Notes: generated by a model from the letters alone, not told the origin. A stretch of 14,578 nt of DNA from an uncultured candidate division Zixibacteria bacterium (GCA_937900185.1 CALCCW010000021.1:1-14578), one strand, 5' to 3'; counted from the stretch's first letter, positions 1,193-10,917 are shown. Numbers and translations: made by a program.

Positions 1193-2317
1193 ATGTCATT
1201 ATTATTAGAAGTAATTGAATGGATGGACCCATCCGGCGATGAAATGATTTACCGTATTCCGCAGGAAGGTTCTGCCGATTTTAAGTTAGGTGCTCAACTT
1301 ATAGTACGAGATAGTCAAATGGCTTTCTTTTTCAAAGATGGGCATGCTGCCGATACATTTACGACCGGACGGCATACGCTTTCGACATTAAACGTTCCCA
1401 TTTTGACCAGATTACTGGCTTTCCCATTTGGTTTTAATTCACCATTTCGTGCAGAATGTTATTTTATAAATTTAAAAACGTACACCGATATGAAATGGGG
1501 TACAAAAAATCCGGTTACATTTAAAGACAGTAAACTTGGTTTGATTCGTTTGCGTGGTCATGGTGCTTTTACAATGAAAATTAAAGAACCGATTCTATTT
1601 TTAAATTCTATTGTTGGTCGTCAAGCAAAATTTACAACTTCTGAAATTCAAGATTATCTTCGTGATGTTATTATCGCACGTATGAATGATATGCTTGGTG
1701 AGAAACTCGATACGATTTTAGATCTCCCGTCAATCTATACCGAACTTGCCGAAGATTTTAAAGAATTAGTCAGCTCTGAATTTGAAAAATATGGTTTAGA
1801 ACTTGTAGATTTTTATATCTCTTCAATCACTCCTCCTGAAGAAGTAACCAAAATGATTGACCAGCGTTCCGGTATGGAAGCTGTTGGCGATTTAGATAAG
1901 TTCCTCAAATTTGAACTGGCTAAAGGGTTTGGAGGCACAAGTGGCTCAGGTTCTGCCGGAGCAAATATGGGGATGGCAGCCGGTATTGGTATGATGGTAC
2001 CTTCTATGATGCAAAAAGTATATTCACCGGATCAAACCGAATTAAAACGTGAACCGGTTGCTACTGTTACCTGTCCAAAATGTCATACCGACACACCCGA
2101 ACAGTCTCGTTTTTGTTACCGATGCGGTCATCAGATGATTGTACAAAATATCTGTCCTGCCTGTCAGAGTTCACTTCCGTCAGAAGCAAAATTCTGCTTT
2201 GAATGCGGTTTGAAGCTTGATGTGAAAACAACCTGTCCGCATTGTTCGGCTGAACTAATTGCAGGTTCCAAATTTTGCGGCGAATGTGGTAAGAATATAG
2301 ATGGCGATAATAGCTAA
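1193..2317 (+). CDS. SPFH/band-7-like protein of the YdjI/COG4260 type with a Gly/Met-rich linker and three tandem C-terminal zinc ribbons (zinc_ribbon_2-like)
   Basis: A strong RBS (AGAGGAG) sits 7 nt upstream of the ATG. The N-terminal ~240 aa ([21 protein letters not shown]...[17 protein letters not shown]...[14 protein letters not shown]...) resemble the COG4260 family of SPFH-domain proteins with a C-terminal Zn-ribbon, recalled from memory. [25 protein letters not shown] linker follows. The C-terminus has three ~28-aa repeats, each CPxC-x9-FCxxCG. The family assignment is from memory, not a search. Confidence 0.65.
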
Positions 2318-3701
2318 AAAAGAAATAAAAGGATTCCGTATCGGTGTCAGCTGCCCCGGATGCGGGGGAGAACTGGAACTTGAGGATAATTTTTTTGCTG
2401 TTGAGTGTCATCATTGCGGTTCTGCTCTTAGGCTAATAATGCCCGATGCTCCGCCTACTTTTGTTGCCGAAGTACAAATTACAAAACAGAAAGCCAGATA
2501 TGCGATTGACCGGTATCTCAAAGATGCCGGTAAACCGCTTACGCATTCAGATTATCAACTCAAACGGATGTATTACCCTTACTGGAAAGTTGATGCGATA
2601 CTTTTTCGACTCAGAAAGGGTGTTGAAAAAAAAGTTGTATCTTCTGAGTATTCTGATGATAATGAAAAAACGTACGAAACAGAAAAAATTGATATTTCTC
2701 TTTCACCGTACACTACAACACTTACTGCCGGAATGAACTATGACGGACTGCCTGATACTTTGGGGCTTCGCTCTGAATATCTCAAACTTTTCCCTTTATC
2801 TGATGAAAAAATTGACGAGAACTTTGATTTGCTGCCTATTATAAAATCATGGGAAGAAGTCAGAAAATCTCTCCATCAACATTTGGGAGCGATAAGCTCA
2901 TTTGATACAAATCTCTTTGGAGTAAATAAAACTGATATCTATGGACCTAAAGCAATGCTTCTGTATTTTCCATTTTTTCTTTTTGATTTTTATGATACCG
3001 ATGGATTTAATCGTTTTGTTATAGATGGTGTTACCGGTCGAGTGTTAAATCATATTACTTCTTTGGAGTTAGCCCCATCGGAGACATCTGAAACAGAAAA
3101 AATCACTTTGGGCGAAATATCTATTGTCTCACATCGATGCAGCAACTGCGGAGAAGATTTACCGTCGGAAGAATCATTGGTGTACATCTGTAAAAACTGT
3201 CAGGTTATAACAGATTTAGAACCCGGCGTTGAAATAGACACAATTCGGCAAGTAGTGCATCCGGTCAATCCTAATAACATCTTGGTACCATTTTGGGCAT
3301 TTAAAATAAAAGATATTGATGAATCTGTGTTAAAATCTATTTTTGGCGGTATATATCGGTCTGACAAAGTAGTTATTCCGGCTTTTCGGGTTCAAAACTA
3401 TAATGCTATTTTTAAACTAAGCAAAAGAATGTCCGCTGCCTTTCCTCAATTTGATTTTGAAAATATAATCACTATGGATAGACAATATGCTCCGGTGGAT
3501 TTACCGTTAAACGAAGCTCAGGTACTTACCGAAGTATTTGTAACAACCGATCAATATAAAAAAAATATCACTCATAAAAAGACAGAAAATCATTTTCAAT
3601 TTGATGATATAACTCTTTTTTATGCTCCCTTTCATTTGGAAAGTTATTTCTATGTCGATTCAGTTTTGCAGGCAGTAACTTTTGAAAAAAACCTCATTTA
3701 A
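2301..3701 (+). CDS. Internally duplicated zinc-ribbon protein of unknown function, translationally coupled to the upstream SPFH-like gene
   Basis: The start overlaps the upstream stop by 17 nt (ATGGCGATAATAGCTAA). An N-terminal CPGCGG-x15-CHHCG ribbon opens the first half. A second ribbon, CSNCG-x12-CKNC (residues ~280-300), opens a second half. The halves share hydrophobic motifs: [12 protein letters not shown] vs [12 protein letters not shown], and [16 protein letters not shown] vs [17 protein letters not shown]. There is no obvious TM helix and no recognised catalytic motif. Confidence 0.6.
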
Positions 3702-4070
3702 TATTCCTCTGACTTAGTAAACAAAACAGACGATAATTTTAGTTTTCAAATTGAGCCGTCAGGAACCCATTCCTGACATGAATTGTAGAGAACAGGCATG
3801 CCTCAACCCTACAAAAATAAGCTGAACAGCAGAAAATTTGGAACTAATTGCCTCCTATGTAGTAGAATTCACAACATCCCAAAACTGCCATTTATTTCAC
3901 TTGCGATTGCACTTGCAATTACCTATTTTTGAGCGTGTAAAAATGAATTTTAAGGATAAAAAATAATTATTAATATACCGTATTCCATCTTTTTAACTAT
4001 TTCTCCAAGTCATACTGAATTTGTTGAAGTATGTTCATGTTAAATACGGTATTTTTATATGGAGTGAAGA

Positions 4071-6704
4071 GTGTACAGATATTACAAACTATTGTTACTC
4101 ATCGTAACCGTTTTTCTTTATCTGCCGGTAGTCGGGTTTGCCGATATACCGGAATTTTTTGACCAACCCGATTCTGGCTATACAACCAATGTTGTGACAG
4201 ATATTATTACTCACGATAGTGCCATCTGGTTTGCCACCGATGAAGGGTTGAACTTTTCTTATGACGGCGGACAATCCTGGTTGTTATATGATAACAGTAA
4301 CGGATTAGTCTCCTCATCTATTTCAGCTTTATTTTCATTGCCATCTCGGTTTGGACAAAGAATTTGGGCAGCAACCAACCATCAGGAAAATATCGGAGGA
4401 GTCATTACCGGAATTTCCGATGGTGTTTCATACTCAGACGACAGCGGTCTCACATGGACTCAGGTTGATTTTGAGACTGCTCCAAATGACATTCCTTATG
4501 TATGGGGTGGAGACAGAACTATTTTTGATATTACCGGTCATTATGACCCAAACAATGACTCCTTGGACAATTGGGTGTTCTTTACTGCTTTTGCAGGCGG
4601 CTTTTTAGCCTCGCGTGACGGCGGTGAAAGTTGGAAACGAATTTTTCCTACCGTTGCAGATTCTATTCAATTTGAGGTTCCTAATGCTCAACCGTCTTTA
4701 CGAAATAGATACTTCTCCTGTGTTGCCGATACATCGCATGGCGATACTCTTATAGTATGGGCTGGGACTGCCGGCGGTATTTTTCAATATGTTTTTGCAG
4801 AACCCAAAGATAAACCGTTTACCAAACATGTGACCGATATAGAATTTTGTGACAGTTGTGGAACAGGAGATTCAAGTTTTGTTTATTATGGCGGATTAGA
4901 AGGATTTACTCGTGGTAATAAATTAACCGGTCTTGCTGTCAGTAAATTTATATCAGATGGTCTACTGGGAAGTCAAATAACATCAATGCTTGATTTTGGC
5001 GGTAAACTTTTCGTTGGTACTGCAGCTAGTGCTGATGACTACACTTCAAAAGGTCTTGCTGTTTCAACAGACTTTGGTGAGAGCTTTACTGCCACATATA
5101 ATCAACCTGCTTTTGAAGGTGCCGGACATAGAATTTCAGATTTTGCGGTTATGAATGACCGAATATATATGGCTCTTGAAGAAAATGGTTTGTATGTTTC
5201 CAATGACACCGGAGCGAACTGGAACTATGTTATAATAGACACCCTTGATACTACTCCTGACAATCGCCGTAATGTTGTAAATGCTTTAGAAGCTGTCGGA
5301 GACACTCTCAACATTGGTACCGACTCCGGGTTGGTCAGGCTGTATCTTTCCGCATCGGGAGCAGTCGACTCCTCACTGCAATTTGTTTTCCCAAGCAATT
5401 CAACATCCTCAACAAAAATTATCAAGGTAAAAACTCAACCATTAAGTAATGGTGATGTCAGGTTATGGACAGTCAATGTTCCTCTTGATACCGTACTTAA
5501 TCTTGCTACTGCTATAACATCATATTCACTTGACGGAGGTCAAACATTCCTGCCGCGATTTAATGTAAACGGACTTAACAGAAACATTGGTTTTATTGGT
5601 GATACAGCAGTTATCATTGGTGACTACGGTACGGTATATACAGATATCGGCGGTGTTTTGCCGTCAGAATCATTCCCGATATATCAAAAAGTTCCTCTTT
5701 CTGTAGATACTTTAACTAACGATACAACTTTTGTCGTTCTTGATTCACTAAATGCCGATTCGTTAACTTCTATAAAAATAAAAGGTGATACTGTAATTGT
5801 CGGTGGCAACAAAGGCTATGCTGTTTCTTTAGACAGAGGTAGCTCTTTTAATATTACCAGAGTAAATACAGAGTTTCTTGCTGCTGATTTTGTATTGAAT
5901 TATACATCTGCCATTCAAGGTATTGACGGTGATTGGGTTCCTGCTTTGGAAGTAGAATATAATGATTCATTTGTTTTTGCCCGTGTTTGGGCATCAGTTA
6001 GACCTACCTTTGGTGGTGTTCCGGGTATTTCGGTTAGTTGGGCTGCACCTGTTGTAGATACATTAGGTGATACTTTAAGATATGAAAGATTATGGGGGAG
6101 AGTACATGATGAATTTGCATGGAATTTCGCCCTTGCTTCTGATACTATATTTGCCGCAACAGATAACGGTCTAATATATGGCATAACAGATTCTCTCCTT
6201 TTTGGTGATATTACCTATGATTGGACAACAGTTGAAATGCTTGATTCAACAGGTGCATCGCTTCTATTAGAAGGTACTCCGGTATATGCGGTAGAAGTTG
6301 ATGACAACTATATATGGGCTGGCACAGGTGACAGAACAGTGAGGATTGATCGTTCAGACCTTACATTATCAAAAGCATTTTATGTCGAAGACCCTACTGA
6401 TGAAGTGTACGCCTTTCCAATTCCATTTAGTCATGCTAACTCAAATAGACTTGATTTTCATTTTATTGTAAAACAGCAGGCAGCTATTACTATTGAAATT
6501 TATGATTTTGCCATGCATTTGGTTAAACGTGTTGTAGACAATGTTACCTACGACCCGGGAATCTATCCGACCGCCGGTGCAAGCAGACATGTTTGGGATG
6601 GCTTAAACGGCAAAGGCGATGAGGTCGCTGTCGGGATGTATTACTTTAAAATTATATATTCAACCGGTGAAGTTCACTGGGGTAAAATTGCGGTTATTCC
6701 ATAA
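4071..6704 (+). CDS. Secreted BNR/Asp-box repeat (beta-propeller) protein with a T9SS-type C-terminal sorting domain
   Basis: GTG start with GGAG RBS 6 nt upstream. An upstream in-frame ATG at 4059 is followed immediately by a stop. The signal peptide is VYRYYKLLLLIVTVFLYLPVVGFA. Multiple Asp-box motifs (S-x-D-x-G-x-T/S-W/F) are present: SYDGGQSW, SDDSGLTW, SRDGGESW, STDFGESF, SNDTGANW, SLDGGQTF, SLDRGSSF. The C-terminal ~95 aa (AFPIPFS...ITIEIYDFAMHLV...WDGLNGKGDEVAVGMYYFKIIYSTGEVHWGKIAVIP) match the T9SS type-A / FlgD Ig-like sorting-domain pattern. Confidence 0.8.
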   Translation: MYRYYKLLLLIVTVFLYLPVVGFADIPEFFDQPDSGYTTNVVTDIITHDSAIWFATDEGLNFSYDGGQSWLLYDNSNGLVSSSISALFSLPSRFGQRIWAATNHQENIGGVITGISDGVSYSDDSGLTWTQVDFETAPNDIPYVWGGDRTIFDITGHYDPNNDSLDNWVFFTAFAGGFLASRDGGESWKRIFPTVADSIQFEVPNAQPSLRNRYFSCVADTSHGDTLIVWAGTAGGIFQYVFAEPKDKPFTKHVTDIEFCDSCGTGDSSFVYYGGLEGFTRGNKLTGLAVSKFISDGLLGSQITSMLDFGGKLFVGTAASADDYTSKGLAVSTDFGESFTATYNQPAFEGAGHRISDFAVMNDRIYMALEENGLYVSNDTGANWNYVIIDTLDTTPDNRRNVVNALEAVGDTLNIGTDSGLVRLYLSASGAVDSSLQFVFPSNSTSSTKIIKVKTQPLSNGDVRLWTVNVPLDTVLNLATAITSYSLDGGQTFLPRFNVNGLNRNIGFIGDTAVIIGDYGTVYTDIGGVLPSESFPIYQKVPLSVDTLTNDTTFVVLDSLNADSLTSIKIKGDTVIVGGNKGYAVSLDRGSSFNITRVNTEFLAADFVLNYTSAIQGIDGDWVPALEVEYNDSFVFARVWASVRPTFGGVPGISVSWAAPVVDTLGDTLRYERLWGRVHDEFAWNFALASDTIFAATDNGLIYGITDSLLFGDITYDWTTVEMLDSTGASLLLEGTPVYAVEVDDNYIWAGTGDRTVRIDRSDLTLSKAFYVEDPTDEVYAFPIPFSHANSNRLDFHFIVKQQAAITIEIYDFAMHLVKRVVDNVTYDPGIYPTAGASRHVWDGLNGKGDEVAVGMYYFKIIYSTGEVHWGKIAVIP

Positions 6705-6714
6705 TTAAGGAGAG

Positions 6715-7707
6715 ATGGTAATGAAAAAAATATTATTATTTGCAGTTCTGACATTATTCTGTCTGTCAACATCTCTCTTAGCTGAAGATGGTGATGCAGG
6801 TTATGCCGGCAGTTTTTTACAAGTTCCAATTGGTGCCAGACCGACAGCAATGGGTGGTGCATTTATTTCTATTTCAAATGATGCCTCCGGAAGTTTTTAT
6901 AATCCTGCCGGGATGTCTATAATCAAAAAATCAATTTTTGCTACTTCTTATAGAGCTATGCAGCTTGATAGAAAACTTGGATACACGGCGATTCTATTTC
7001 CGACTCAAGGAAATTCAGTTCTTGGATTTAGCTGGCTTTATGCCGGTTCGGGATCAGTAGATGCTCGAAATGATGATGGTGATTTATTAGGGAATACGTT
7101 AGAACAAAATAATCACCAAATTTCTATTCTGTTCTCAAAAAGATTTGAAAAATATTTATCTTTAGGATTTAAAGGTTCTTATTTGTACTCTAAGTTTGCT
7201 GAAATGTCTGTCTTTTCTGTTGGTATTGATTTAGGAGCAACTTTATATATAAGCCGGTTGTTCAGCAGAGAAAAAAGAGATTTAATGTCTATTCAGGATA
7301 TACAAGTTGGGCTTGTCGTGAGAAATTTAGCAGCTAATTTTAAGTGGAATAATGATAATTATTTGGCTGCACATAGCGGATCTGCTTTTGGAGGTTCTGA
7401 TCATATTGATGATTTCCCTGTAGAAATCGGCATTGGCGGTTCAGCAAGATTTTTTAATAGAAAACTTTTATTGAGTTCAGATATTGTGAAAAACAGCAAA
7501 GAAAATATTATTCTACATGCCGGAGGAGAATATTTTATTACCAAACAATTTGCTGCTCGTGTAGGATATACCGATAGAAGCTTGACTACCGGATTTGGCT
7601 ATGTTTTTAATTTAGATAAATTTGGCTTAGTGTTTGACTATGCCTATTCATCAGAAAAAGTTGGTGAAGGTTCGGAACATATATTTTCATTTGACATATT
7701 ATTTTAA
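6715..7707 (+). CDS. Outer-membrane beta-barrel protein of the FadL-like PorV/PorQ family, probably T9SS-associated
   Basis: AAGGAG RBS. The signal peptide is MVMKKILLFAVLTLFCLSTSLLA. The N-terminal motif IGARPTAMGGAFISISNDASGSFYNPAGM matches the FadL/PorV-family signature (GLGRAYSGEGA.ADDAS....NPA). The protein ends in Phe (FDILF), as is typical of OM barrels. It lies immediately downstream of the T9SS cargo gene. Confidence 0.6.
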   Translation: MVMKKILLFAVLTLFCLSTSLLAEDGDAGYAGSFLQVPIGARPTAMGGAFISISNDASGSFYNPAGMSIIKKSIFATSYRAMQLDRKLGYTAILFPTQGNSVLGFSWLYAGSGSVDARNDDGDLLGNTLEQNNHQISILFSKRFEKYLSLGFKGSYLYSKFAEMSVFSVGIDLGATLYISRLFSREKRDLMSIQDIQVGLVVRNLAANFKWNNDNYLAAHSGSAFGGSDHIDDFPVEIGIGGSARFFNRKLLLSSDIVKNSKENIILHAGGEYFITKQFAARVGYTDRSLTTGFGYVFNLDKFGLVFDYAYSSEKVGEGSEHIFSFDILF

Positions 7708-7716
7708 AGGTGAAAA

Positions 7717-8610
7717 ATGAATAATTTGAAAATTGCAATTCTCATTGTGACTCTCCTGTCAGTCGGTCAGATTTCTGCCCAAGATGGGTTAGCCTTGCTG
7801 CAGACAGCACAAGGTGCTAAACAAGCAGGGTTTGGAGAGGCTGTTGTATCTCTTGCAAACCAAGTAAATGGGACCCATTATAATCCTGCCAATATGATAT
7901 CTATTGACAAGTTTACCGCATCGTTTGGACATACTGAATACTGGGAAAATATTAATTTAGAGTCAGGTTTTTTTGCCGCTCCTCTTACATCTAAAGTAAA
8001 TCTACATGGCGGTATCCGTTTTGCCGCTGTGAATGAACTGGAAAATAGAACTCGTGCTACCGAAGAACCTATTAGTTTATTTGACTTTCATGATATATCT
8101 TTCAAAACAGGACTTACGTATGTTAAGAGTGAAAAACTCTCTTTTGGTTTTGCTTTTGGATGGTTTTTTGAAAAAAATGAACTTTGGAACGGTTCTGCTT
8201 TTAATGTCGATTTAGGAATGCATTATCAAGCATCTCCAAACATTCAACTTGGGGCTGCTGTGACAAATCTTGGTTCCTCGTTTCAATTGACAGCTGATGG
8301 TCAAGAAAGTTCTAACGATATTTCTCTTCCCACAAGGTATTCCGTCGGCGGCAGCTATCAATATAATAAATTTATCGGAGCAATTGATGCTGTAATTATC
8401 AACGATGATTTTAAACTGCATGTTGGTACAGAAGCACATTTGCATGAGATGTTTGACGTTCGTGCCGGATATATGTTTAACTATGACAGTAAGGATTTTT
8501 CTGTCGGGGCAACTTTTACAAAACGAAATATTAAAATAGATTATGCATTTGTACCGTATTCTAATAATTTAGGATCGACACATCTGTTTAATTTCACATT
8601 CAGCATATAA
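7717..8610 (+). CDS. Second FadL-like PorV/PorQ-family outer-membrane beta-barrel protein, a paralog of the upstream gene
   Basis: AAAGGTGA RBS. The signal peptide is MNNLKIAILIVTLLSVGQISAQ. The N-terminal motif QGAKQAGFGEAVVSLANQVNGTHYNPANM and the C-terminal region (DVRAGYMFNYD...DYAFVPYS) parallel the upstream protein. The gap to the previous gene is 9 nt. Confidence 0.55.
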   Translation: MNNLKIAILIVTLLSVGQISAQDGLALLQTAQGAKQAGFGEAVVSLANQVNGTHYNPANMISIDKFTASFGHTEYWENINLESGFFAAPLTSKVNLHGGIRFAAVNELENRTRATEEPISLFDFHDISFKTGLTYVKSEKLSFGFAFGWFFEKNELWNGSAFNVDLGMHYQASPNIQLGAAVTNLGSSFQLTADGQESSNDISLPTRYSVGGSYQYNKFIGAIDAVIINDDFKLHVGTEAHLHEMFDVRAGYMFNYDSKDFSVGATFTKRNIKIDYAFVPYSNNLGSTHLFNFTFSI

Positions 8611-10409: not shown

Positions 10410-10917
10410 AATTTGTCTATTCCAATTTTAGTTTTTTCTTTAATCATAAATTAGTAGTAAACGGATGATATACGCAATCATTTTTTGTAAATTTTTCCGC
10501 AATAGTCATTGCGAACGGAGTCCGCAATTAGCGGAAGAAGTGTGGTAATCTTATTTTTGAGACCTGCACTTATTCCACTTCCATACAAGGAAATGACAAT
10601 TTTAAAAATATTAAAAGCAGAATGAGCATCCTTTCCGCCTTGGCGGACTCAGTAGGGGACAAGCAGCCTGTTCCTCTAAGACAGCCTCAATGCCCTGTCA
10701 GAACACAAATGGAAATGTTGAGGCATGCCTCAACCCTACAATTGTTTCCCCGAGGAATTAAGGGGTGAGTTTATTTTCATAGTGTTAGGGCTGGACTTCG
10801 TGTCAAGCACGGAGATGAGTTCAAGAGATAGAGATGTCTGGTTTCTCTCAATTATACTTTTTTAGAAGCGGAACCGAGACCTACTATTTTATAAATGGAA
10901 GTGTATATCATGATTTA

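Follow-up and report, generated by a model that had tools for sequence, protein, structure and literature searches.

A probably soluble YdjG-family protein with a duplicated zinc-ribbon module, paired with an SPFH gene in a candidate division Zixibacteria bacterium

A 14,578-nucleotide stretch of DNA from an uncultured candidate division Zixibacteria bacterium (GCA_937900185.1 CALCCW010000021.1:1-14578; hereafter the window) encodes, at positions 2301 to 3701, a 466-residue protein made of two consecutive modules, each with a zinc ribbon followed by a larger domain. Judged from sequence profiles, the tandem duplication of this unit is real, old and maintained. The unit is that of Bacillus subtilis YdjG, in which a C4 zinc ribbon precedes an alpha+beta domain organised round aromatic-Pro-aromatic-Trp strands, and the gene overlaps that of an SPFH protein related to B. 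subtilis YdjI. The protein is probably a soluble member of the YdjG family, with a duplicated module, that would serve as an adaptor or assembly factor for its SPFH neighbour. The pair is a duplicated, anchor-less and PspA-unlinked version of the known YdjI-YdjG pair and not a new kind of protein. The original prediction, made on the DNA alone, had described an ancient internal duplication in a 'partner protein', had suggested a pseudo-dimeric fold as its product and had considered the repeated unit a possible novel domain. The protein is laid out as follows:

2301..3701, plus strand: open reading frame of 466 aa, YdjG-like, with a duplicated (zinc ribbon + domain) module; start ATG 17 nt inside the SPFH reading frame
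2337..2438, plus strand: zinc ribbon 1, aa 13-46, ligands C18, C21, C36 and C39; cysteines invariant, aligned to ZnR2 and ZnR1 of YdjG
2439..3056, plus strand: half-1 domain (YdjG-type), aa 47-252; a strand, helix 62-75, a long hairpin 86-113/123-142 opening with YYPYW, helix 184-201 and strands 210-252 (LLYFPF...)
3057..3116, plus strand: variable inter-module linker, aa 253-272
3117..3218, plus strand: zinc ribbon 2, aa 273-306, H278-R-C280, C283, C297 and C300; invariant in 232/232 sequences, aligned to ribbon 1
3219..3644, plus strand: half-2 domain, a diverged and apparently remodelled copy, aa 307-448; strand 328-336 (LVPFWAFKI), helices 341-352, 367-383 and 403-420, and strand 434-443 (ITLFYAPFH)
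3645..3698, plus strand: conserved C-terminal tail, aa 449-466 (18 residues), paired with the terminal beta-hairpin of half 1 by hhalign

Homologues were collected as a set of 158 word-indexed sequences and by an exhaustive HMMER search, which gave 1004 cluster representatives (E ≤ 1e-3). Of the full-length matches listed for the top 150 of these 1004, nearly all are ~420-525 aa long and most cover both halves; the two-module architecture is thus family-wide. The reading frame and both C4 ribbons of the original prediction (CPGC at 18-21 with CHHC at 36-39, CSNC at 280-283 with CKNC at 297-300) are present, each ahead of ~150-200 aa, and its division of the protein into residues ~1-260 and ~270-466 is correct. 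All eight ribbon cysteines are invariant in 52 close homologues, and no fewer than 224 of 232 diverse ones have them. In the AlphaFold2 (AF2) model ribbon 1 consists of three short beta-strands, and it gave weak matches to the LysW and HypA ribbons.

The self-similarity that the original prediction expected from aligning the protein with itself is significant between profiles and at chance level within the single sequence. Smith-Waterman alignment of residues 1-265 with 266-466 scored 39, against 31.9±5.1 for shuffled sequences (z 1.4, with 53 of 500 shuffles reaching 39), and paired the ribbons only; BLASTP of half 1 against half 2 was not significant. Such a comparison is insufficient rather than negative. 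With profiles built from the 52 close homologues, hhalign recovered no more than the ribbon, at E 9e-5, and a block near the C-terminus that scored weakly (E 0.045). Profiles of the 232 diverse full-length homologues (effective number of sequences, Neff, 6.4) aligned the two halves with a probability of 98% and an E-value of 1.9e-13, over 174 colinear columns joining residues 17-249 to 279-460. It matches the ribbons to each other, strand 52-56 to 314-318, YYPYW to LVPFW and helix 184-201 to 403-420, followed by LLYFPF to LFYAPF and an 11-residue segment of one half to one of the other; these are exactly the aromatic and hydrophobic blocks that had been noticed at the outset to recur in the same order.

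The score of this alignment (84.2) was compared with two controls: shuffling the columns of half 2 gave 13.1±2.3 (maximum 19.6, n=40), and reversing half 2 gave 19.9. Removal of the ribbons left an E-value of 7.5e-7, while the C-terminal third and the PFW strand region were each significant by themselves (E 6e-9 and 1.4e-5, respectively). Every sequence has 218-329 residues before the boundary and 183-241 after it, so the halves are not cross-contaminated through misalignment. Mean pairwise identity is 32% in each half, and with this equal conservation neither half is decaying. On the significant profile alignment, its controls and the even conservation of the halves, the duplication is regarded as real, old and maintained, with a second copy that the data point to as remodelled.

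The repeated unit is not a novel domain, as had been considered, since half 1 is homologous to the second ribbon and post-ribbon domain of YdjG. The YdjG query has 100% identity to a database protein (P0288) and 99% to proteins named 'TFIIB-type zinc ribbon-containing protein [Bacillus subtilis]', and the YdjG family used here is therefore authentic. Residues 17-250 align with residues 55-306 of the YdjG profile (hhalign, probability 98.2%, E 4e-14, 215 columns), which spans ZnR2 and the entire domain (YdjG residues ~90-306) up to the transmembrane segment. Ribbon 2 matched the YdjG ribbons with an E-value of 2.9e-8, and pairwise BLASTP of the whole protein against YdjG gave 9e-5. The post-ribbon domain of YdjG has been described as uncharacterised, YpeB-related and NTF2-like (PMC11237479), and, on scans of the window protein and 24 diverse members, neither Pfam nor NCBIfam yet has a model for it. 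Scans with Pfam, NCBIfam and PADLOC returned sub-threshold ribbon matches and no family for the window protein, and with the 24 members included only zinc-ribbon families appeared at E ≤ 1, PepSY-type models being unmatched. A sequence-profile search of the Protein Data Bank (PDB) found ribbon proteins only (E ≥ 0.04), and neither this search nor Foldseek against the PDB found a solved relative. With the whole model, Foldseek had no hit below E 1e-3; spike proteins and pore-forming toxins came up with template-modelling scores < 0.13, which were set aside as noise from the long hairpin.

Half 1 also contains a nested repeat of its own. Residues 55-98 (strand, helix and the YYPYW strand) resemble residues 177-229 (strand, helix and the LLYFPF strand) with a score of 33.6, against 8.9±1.7 after shuffling, and the second of these units also matches the first unit of YdjG (E 4e-7). 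From these two alignments, the YdjG domain may itself be a duplicated alpha/beta unit. The corresponding repeat was not significant in YdjG (residues 85-200 against 201-310), where the alignment was of low diversity (Neff 2.2), nor within half 2.

The window protein has no transmembrane segment: its highest 19-residue Kyte-Doolittle mean is 0.98, and the segment concerned is the beta-strand LLYFPFF. Where the YdjG family has a C-terminal transmembrane anchor, it has a conserved tail of polar and aromatic residues. Y449, F450, D453 and E462 of this tail are invariant, yet its predicted local distance difference test (pLDDT) values are 30-42 in both models; together with the pairing of the tail with the terminal hairpin of half 1, this suggests a candidate interaction strand that would be ordered only within a complex. 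The conserved residues of the protein are cysteine ligands and aromatic, Pro and Gly positions of a structural kind, and no enzymatic activity is expected for that reason.

The gene overlaps its upstream neighbour by 17 nt:

1193..2317, plus strand: SPFH/Band-7 protein of the YdjI type; Band_7_1 at aa 19-229 (PF13421, E 6.8e-67) and DZR (E 2.3e-22)

The two genes are co-transcribed and, given the overlap, probably translationally coupled. The SPFH protein matches B. subtilis YdjI over its full length, ribbon included (BLASTP 7e-35, 25% identity), and has no transmembrane segment (maximum 19-residue Kyte-Doolittle hydropathy 1.27). Its C-terminus carries three consecutive double zinc ribbons with six CxxC motifs (aa 294-365). 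Counted together, the cassette holds five ribbons, three in the SPFH protein and two in its partner, which hints at ribbon-ribbon contacts.

A locus search with patterns from alignment A1, a sample biased towards relatives in the FCB (Fibrobacterota-Chlorobiota-Bacteroidota) group, found relatives in the genomes of 107 GTDB species; the 80 that were retained are without exception metagenome-assembled genomes (MAGs) of that group, with the labels Zixibacteria, Calditrichota or 'Ignavibacteriales'. Upstream sequence was long enough in 76 loci (L001-L003 among them), and in all 76 the immediately preceding gene is co-oriented and encodes an SPFH homologue (66-90% identical). The same pairing occurs in the distant member P0258 (locus L085), whose 90% cluster holds a protein from a Thermodesulfobacteriota MAG. 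In FCB-group MAGs, and in one further metagenomic lineage, the gene pairing is near-obligate; with the overlap and the adjacency in 76/76 loci, the designation 'partner protein' is well founded.

In B. subtilis, YdjI is an SPFH protein that links PspA to the membrane, and both YdjI and PspA depend on YdjG and YdjH for their localisation there (PMC8581546). The homology, the duplication, the pairing and the lack of an anchor and of PspA or TPM genes close by are observed directly, and what the protein does for its SPFH neighbour is our reading of them. By this reading, the two-module protein would bind to the SPFH oligomer and in this way serve a sub-membrane scaffold as adaptor or assembly factor. 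Its two covalently linked, non-equivalent modules could form a built-in heterodimer, one keeping the ancestral fold and the other being specialised, and the zinc ribbons and the invariant C-terminal strand would be the likely elements of protein-protein contact.

Several observations weigh against this adaptor role. Two-hybrid assays on the B. subtilis proteins detected an interaction of YdjG with YdjH but none with YdjI (PMC8581546). Half 2 matches the YdjG profile over the ribbon and the PFW strand only (E 7.5e-7), and its isolated model resembles neither PepSY nor NTF2 folds, so that structural equivalence with half 1 is unproven; the pseudo-dimeric fold of the original prediction is likewise unproven. 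Membrane association is an assumption, because neither protein has a transmembrane helix. No PspA_IM30 (PF04012) or TPM/YdjH gene was found among the ten scanned reading frames of the window or among the called genes of L001, L002 and L085. Finally, the gene of the distant two-module member P0206 (locus L084, CP070692.1, a Deltaproteobacteria MAG, gene 7001-8446) has no adjacent SPFH gene; a 587-nt uncalled gap lies upstream, and this is the sole inspected locus that breaks the pairing.

Other explanations of the protein were considered alongside. Half 2 could be an unrelated alpha/beta domain that follows a second zinc ribbon, with aromatic-Pro motifs recurring by convergence or composition, but this is improbable in view of the colinear 174-column alignment (E 1.9e-13), the three separate segments that are each significant alone, and the shuffled and reversed scores of 13-20 against 84. 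Strand also falls on strand and helix on helix for the ribbon, beta 52-56/314-318, the PFW strand, helix 184-201/403-420 and strand 210-232/434-443. In another reading, the protein binds nucleic acids or belongs to translation or transcription and its link to SPFH is regulatory, for instance as a DNA- or RNA-binding operon regulator. Automatic names (RPC12/RpoP, DUF1610, S27E, TFIIB-type) and weak ribbon-only matches to ribosomal and RNA polymerase ribbon proteins are in keeping with it, as is a regulatory role speculated for the TFIIB-type ribbon of YdjG (PMC9239133). These matches, however, span ~30-aa ribbons only and fall below Pfam cut-offs, the non-ribbon domains make up ~85% of the protein, no helix-turn-helix or other nucleic-acid-binding domain is present, and experiments have shown YdjG to act in localising YdjI and PspA (PMC8581546); we judge such a function quite unlikely.

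It is very unlikely that the SPFH gene and its partner form a mobile anti-phage defence or toxin module instead of a housekeeping envelope system. Some defence islands do contain SPFH and zinc-ribbon proteins, the cassette has two genes and an unassigned function, and the long hairpin shows a Foldseek likeness to pore-forming toxins, the latter at chance level (template-modelling score < 0.13). Neither protein has a PADLOC match, however, and the GC content carries no island signature. The distribution over 107 species genomes, with all 80 kept being FCB-group MAGs, is consistent with vertical inheritance, and the neighbourhood with its housekeeping genes is kept in comparison with the genome of a 41%-identical partner (see below).

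A more far-reaching version of the adaptor reading is tentative and, in our view, rather doubtful. The cassette would represent a class of SPFH system that has no membrane anchor and is independent of PspA and YdjH, in which a covalent pseudo-heterodimer of two YdjG modules takes the place of membrane-anchored YdjG/YdjH and either caps the SPFH oligomer or nucleates it. The YdjG domain would in turn be a nested duplication of a unit of strand, helix and aromatic-Pro-aromatic-Trp strand, giving four units in the window protein, and the domain would form a new, unmodelled superfamily dedicated to Band_7_1 SPFH proteins. Such a class might extend over Zixibacteria, Calditrichota, related FCB lineages and some Desulfobacterota-type MAGs, a scope that is no less tentative.

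In the AF2 model residues 86-142 of the partner protein (window 2556-2726) form an unusually long beta-hairpin with strands of 28 and 20 residues and a highly charged tip of 24 residues, which, on the model, may be a protruding arm; half 2 has this hairpin in shortened form or lacks it, and YdjG is gapped there. The linker between the modules (aa 253-272, pLDDT 66-73 in the AF2 model) ranges from 11 to 57 aa across the 232 homologues, and alignment A1 has its large insertions at this point. In some homologues (e.g. P0098, P0108, P0112 and P0115; 493-527 aa) these are acidic, low-complexity insertions of ~30-55 aa at A1 columns ~278-355, exactly between residues 253 and 272 of the window protein.

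Around the cassette, the window holds the following genes:

1-~892, minus strand: multihaem c-type cytochrome fragment that runs off the window start (~297 aa from Met)
4071-6704: BNR/Asp-box protein of 877 aa with an FlgD_ig-like C-terminus
6715-7707 and 7717-8610, plus strand: tandem PorV/PorQ-family (type IX secretion outer-membrane) paralogues, directly after the BNR protein

The cytochrome fragment, with a signal peptide and five CxxCH motifs, is divergent from the SPFH operon. Downstream, the BNR/FlgD_ig protein, the two PorV/PorQ paralogues and an isocitrate/isopropylmalate-type dehydrogenase keep their synteny in L001, where the partner protein has only 41% identity to that of the window, and this synteny argues for a core chromosomal and not a mobile location; the trio of BNR and two PorV/PorQ genes also follows the cassette there. 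The intergenic regions 3702-4070 (~370 nt) and 10410-10917 (~510 nt) contain no reading frame of 60 aa or more, no Rfam family and no tRNA, and Rfam, tRNA, promoter and terminator scans gave nothing relevant.

Band_7_1 SPFH proteins, YdjI among them, form a branch of the flotillin/stomatin superfamily that is little understood and is tied to the phage-shock membrane-stress response, and their YdjG-type partners have no Pfam model, solved structure or known mechanism. The data presented here reveal neither a new kind of system nor a catalytic activity. They place the YdjI-YdjG pairing well beyond the Firmicutes, where it persists with no PspA, YdjH or membrane anchor encoded nearby, and they indicate that duplication of the YdjG module can yield an adaptor with two modules in one chain. 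Such a system, soluble and minimal with its two proteins, suits structural work on the assembly of SPFH scaffolds, and the alignments could yield a domain model that includes the internal repeat.

Among known systems, the PepSY, YpeB C-terminal and YpmB domains, and more widely the cystatin-like and NTF2-like alpha+beta folds, are linked to the modules by weak scores, with no match for half 2. PepSY domains are typically extracytoplasmic, whereas the window family is cytoplasmic, ribbon-fused and without a sequence match to PepSY. SPFH-NfeD operon pairs (stomatin/YbbK with NfeD/YbbJ) are conserved two-gene units that are often translationally coupled, and they share with the cassette the arrangement of an SPFH scaffold and a dedicated small-domain partner. 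NfeD, however, has an OB-fold, transmembrane segments and sometimes a protease domain, and is unrelated to the window protein, which has no NfeD match in Pfam.

The closest counterparts are YdjI and YdjG. The SPFH protein has the Band_7_1 domain, Gly/Met-rich linker, C-terminal zinc ribbon and lack of a transmembrane segment that characterise YdjI, but with three double ribbons in place of one ribbon; its gene is paired directly with a YdjG-like gene and, unlike that of YdjI, has no PspA partner evident locally. The B. subtilis locus (L086) has the order PspA_IM30, YdjG, TPM_phosphatase and Band_7_1+ZnR, and in both organisms the YdjG-type gene shares an operon with a Band_7_1+ZnR SPFH protein. 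In contrast to ydjGHI, the window gene lies downstream of the SPFH gene, overlaps it and has no intervening YdjH. Both YdjG and the window protein begin with C4 zinc ribbons followed by the same alpha+beta domain, and they share the Y-x-P-[FY]-W strand and the terminal ...P-[FVY]-[FW]...G-x-T-G-[RK]-V hairpin. YdjG is built as ribbon, ribbon, domain and transmembrane segment (341 aa), the window protein as ribbon, domain, ribbon and diverged domain (466 aa) with no transmembrane segment; where YdjG doubles the ribbon only, the window protein duplicates the whole module.
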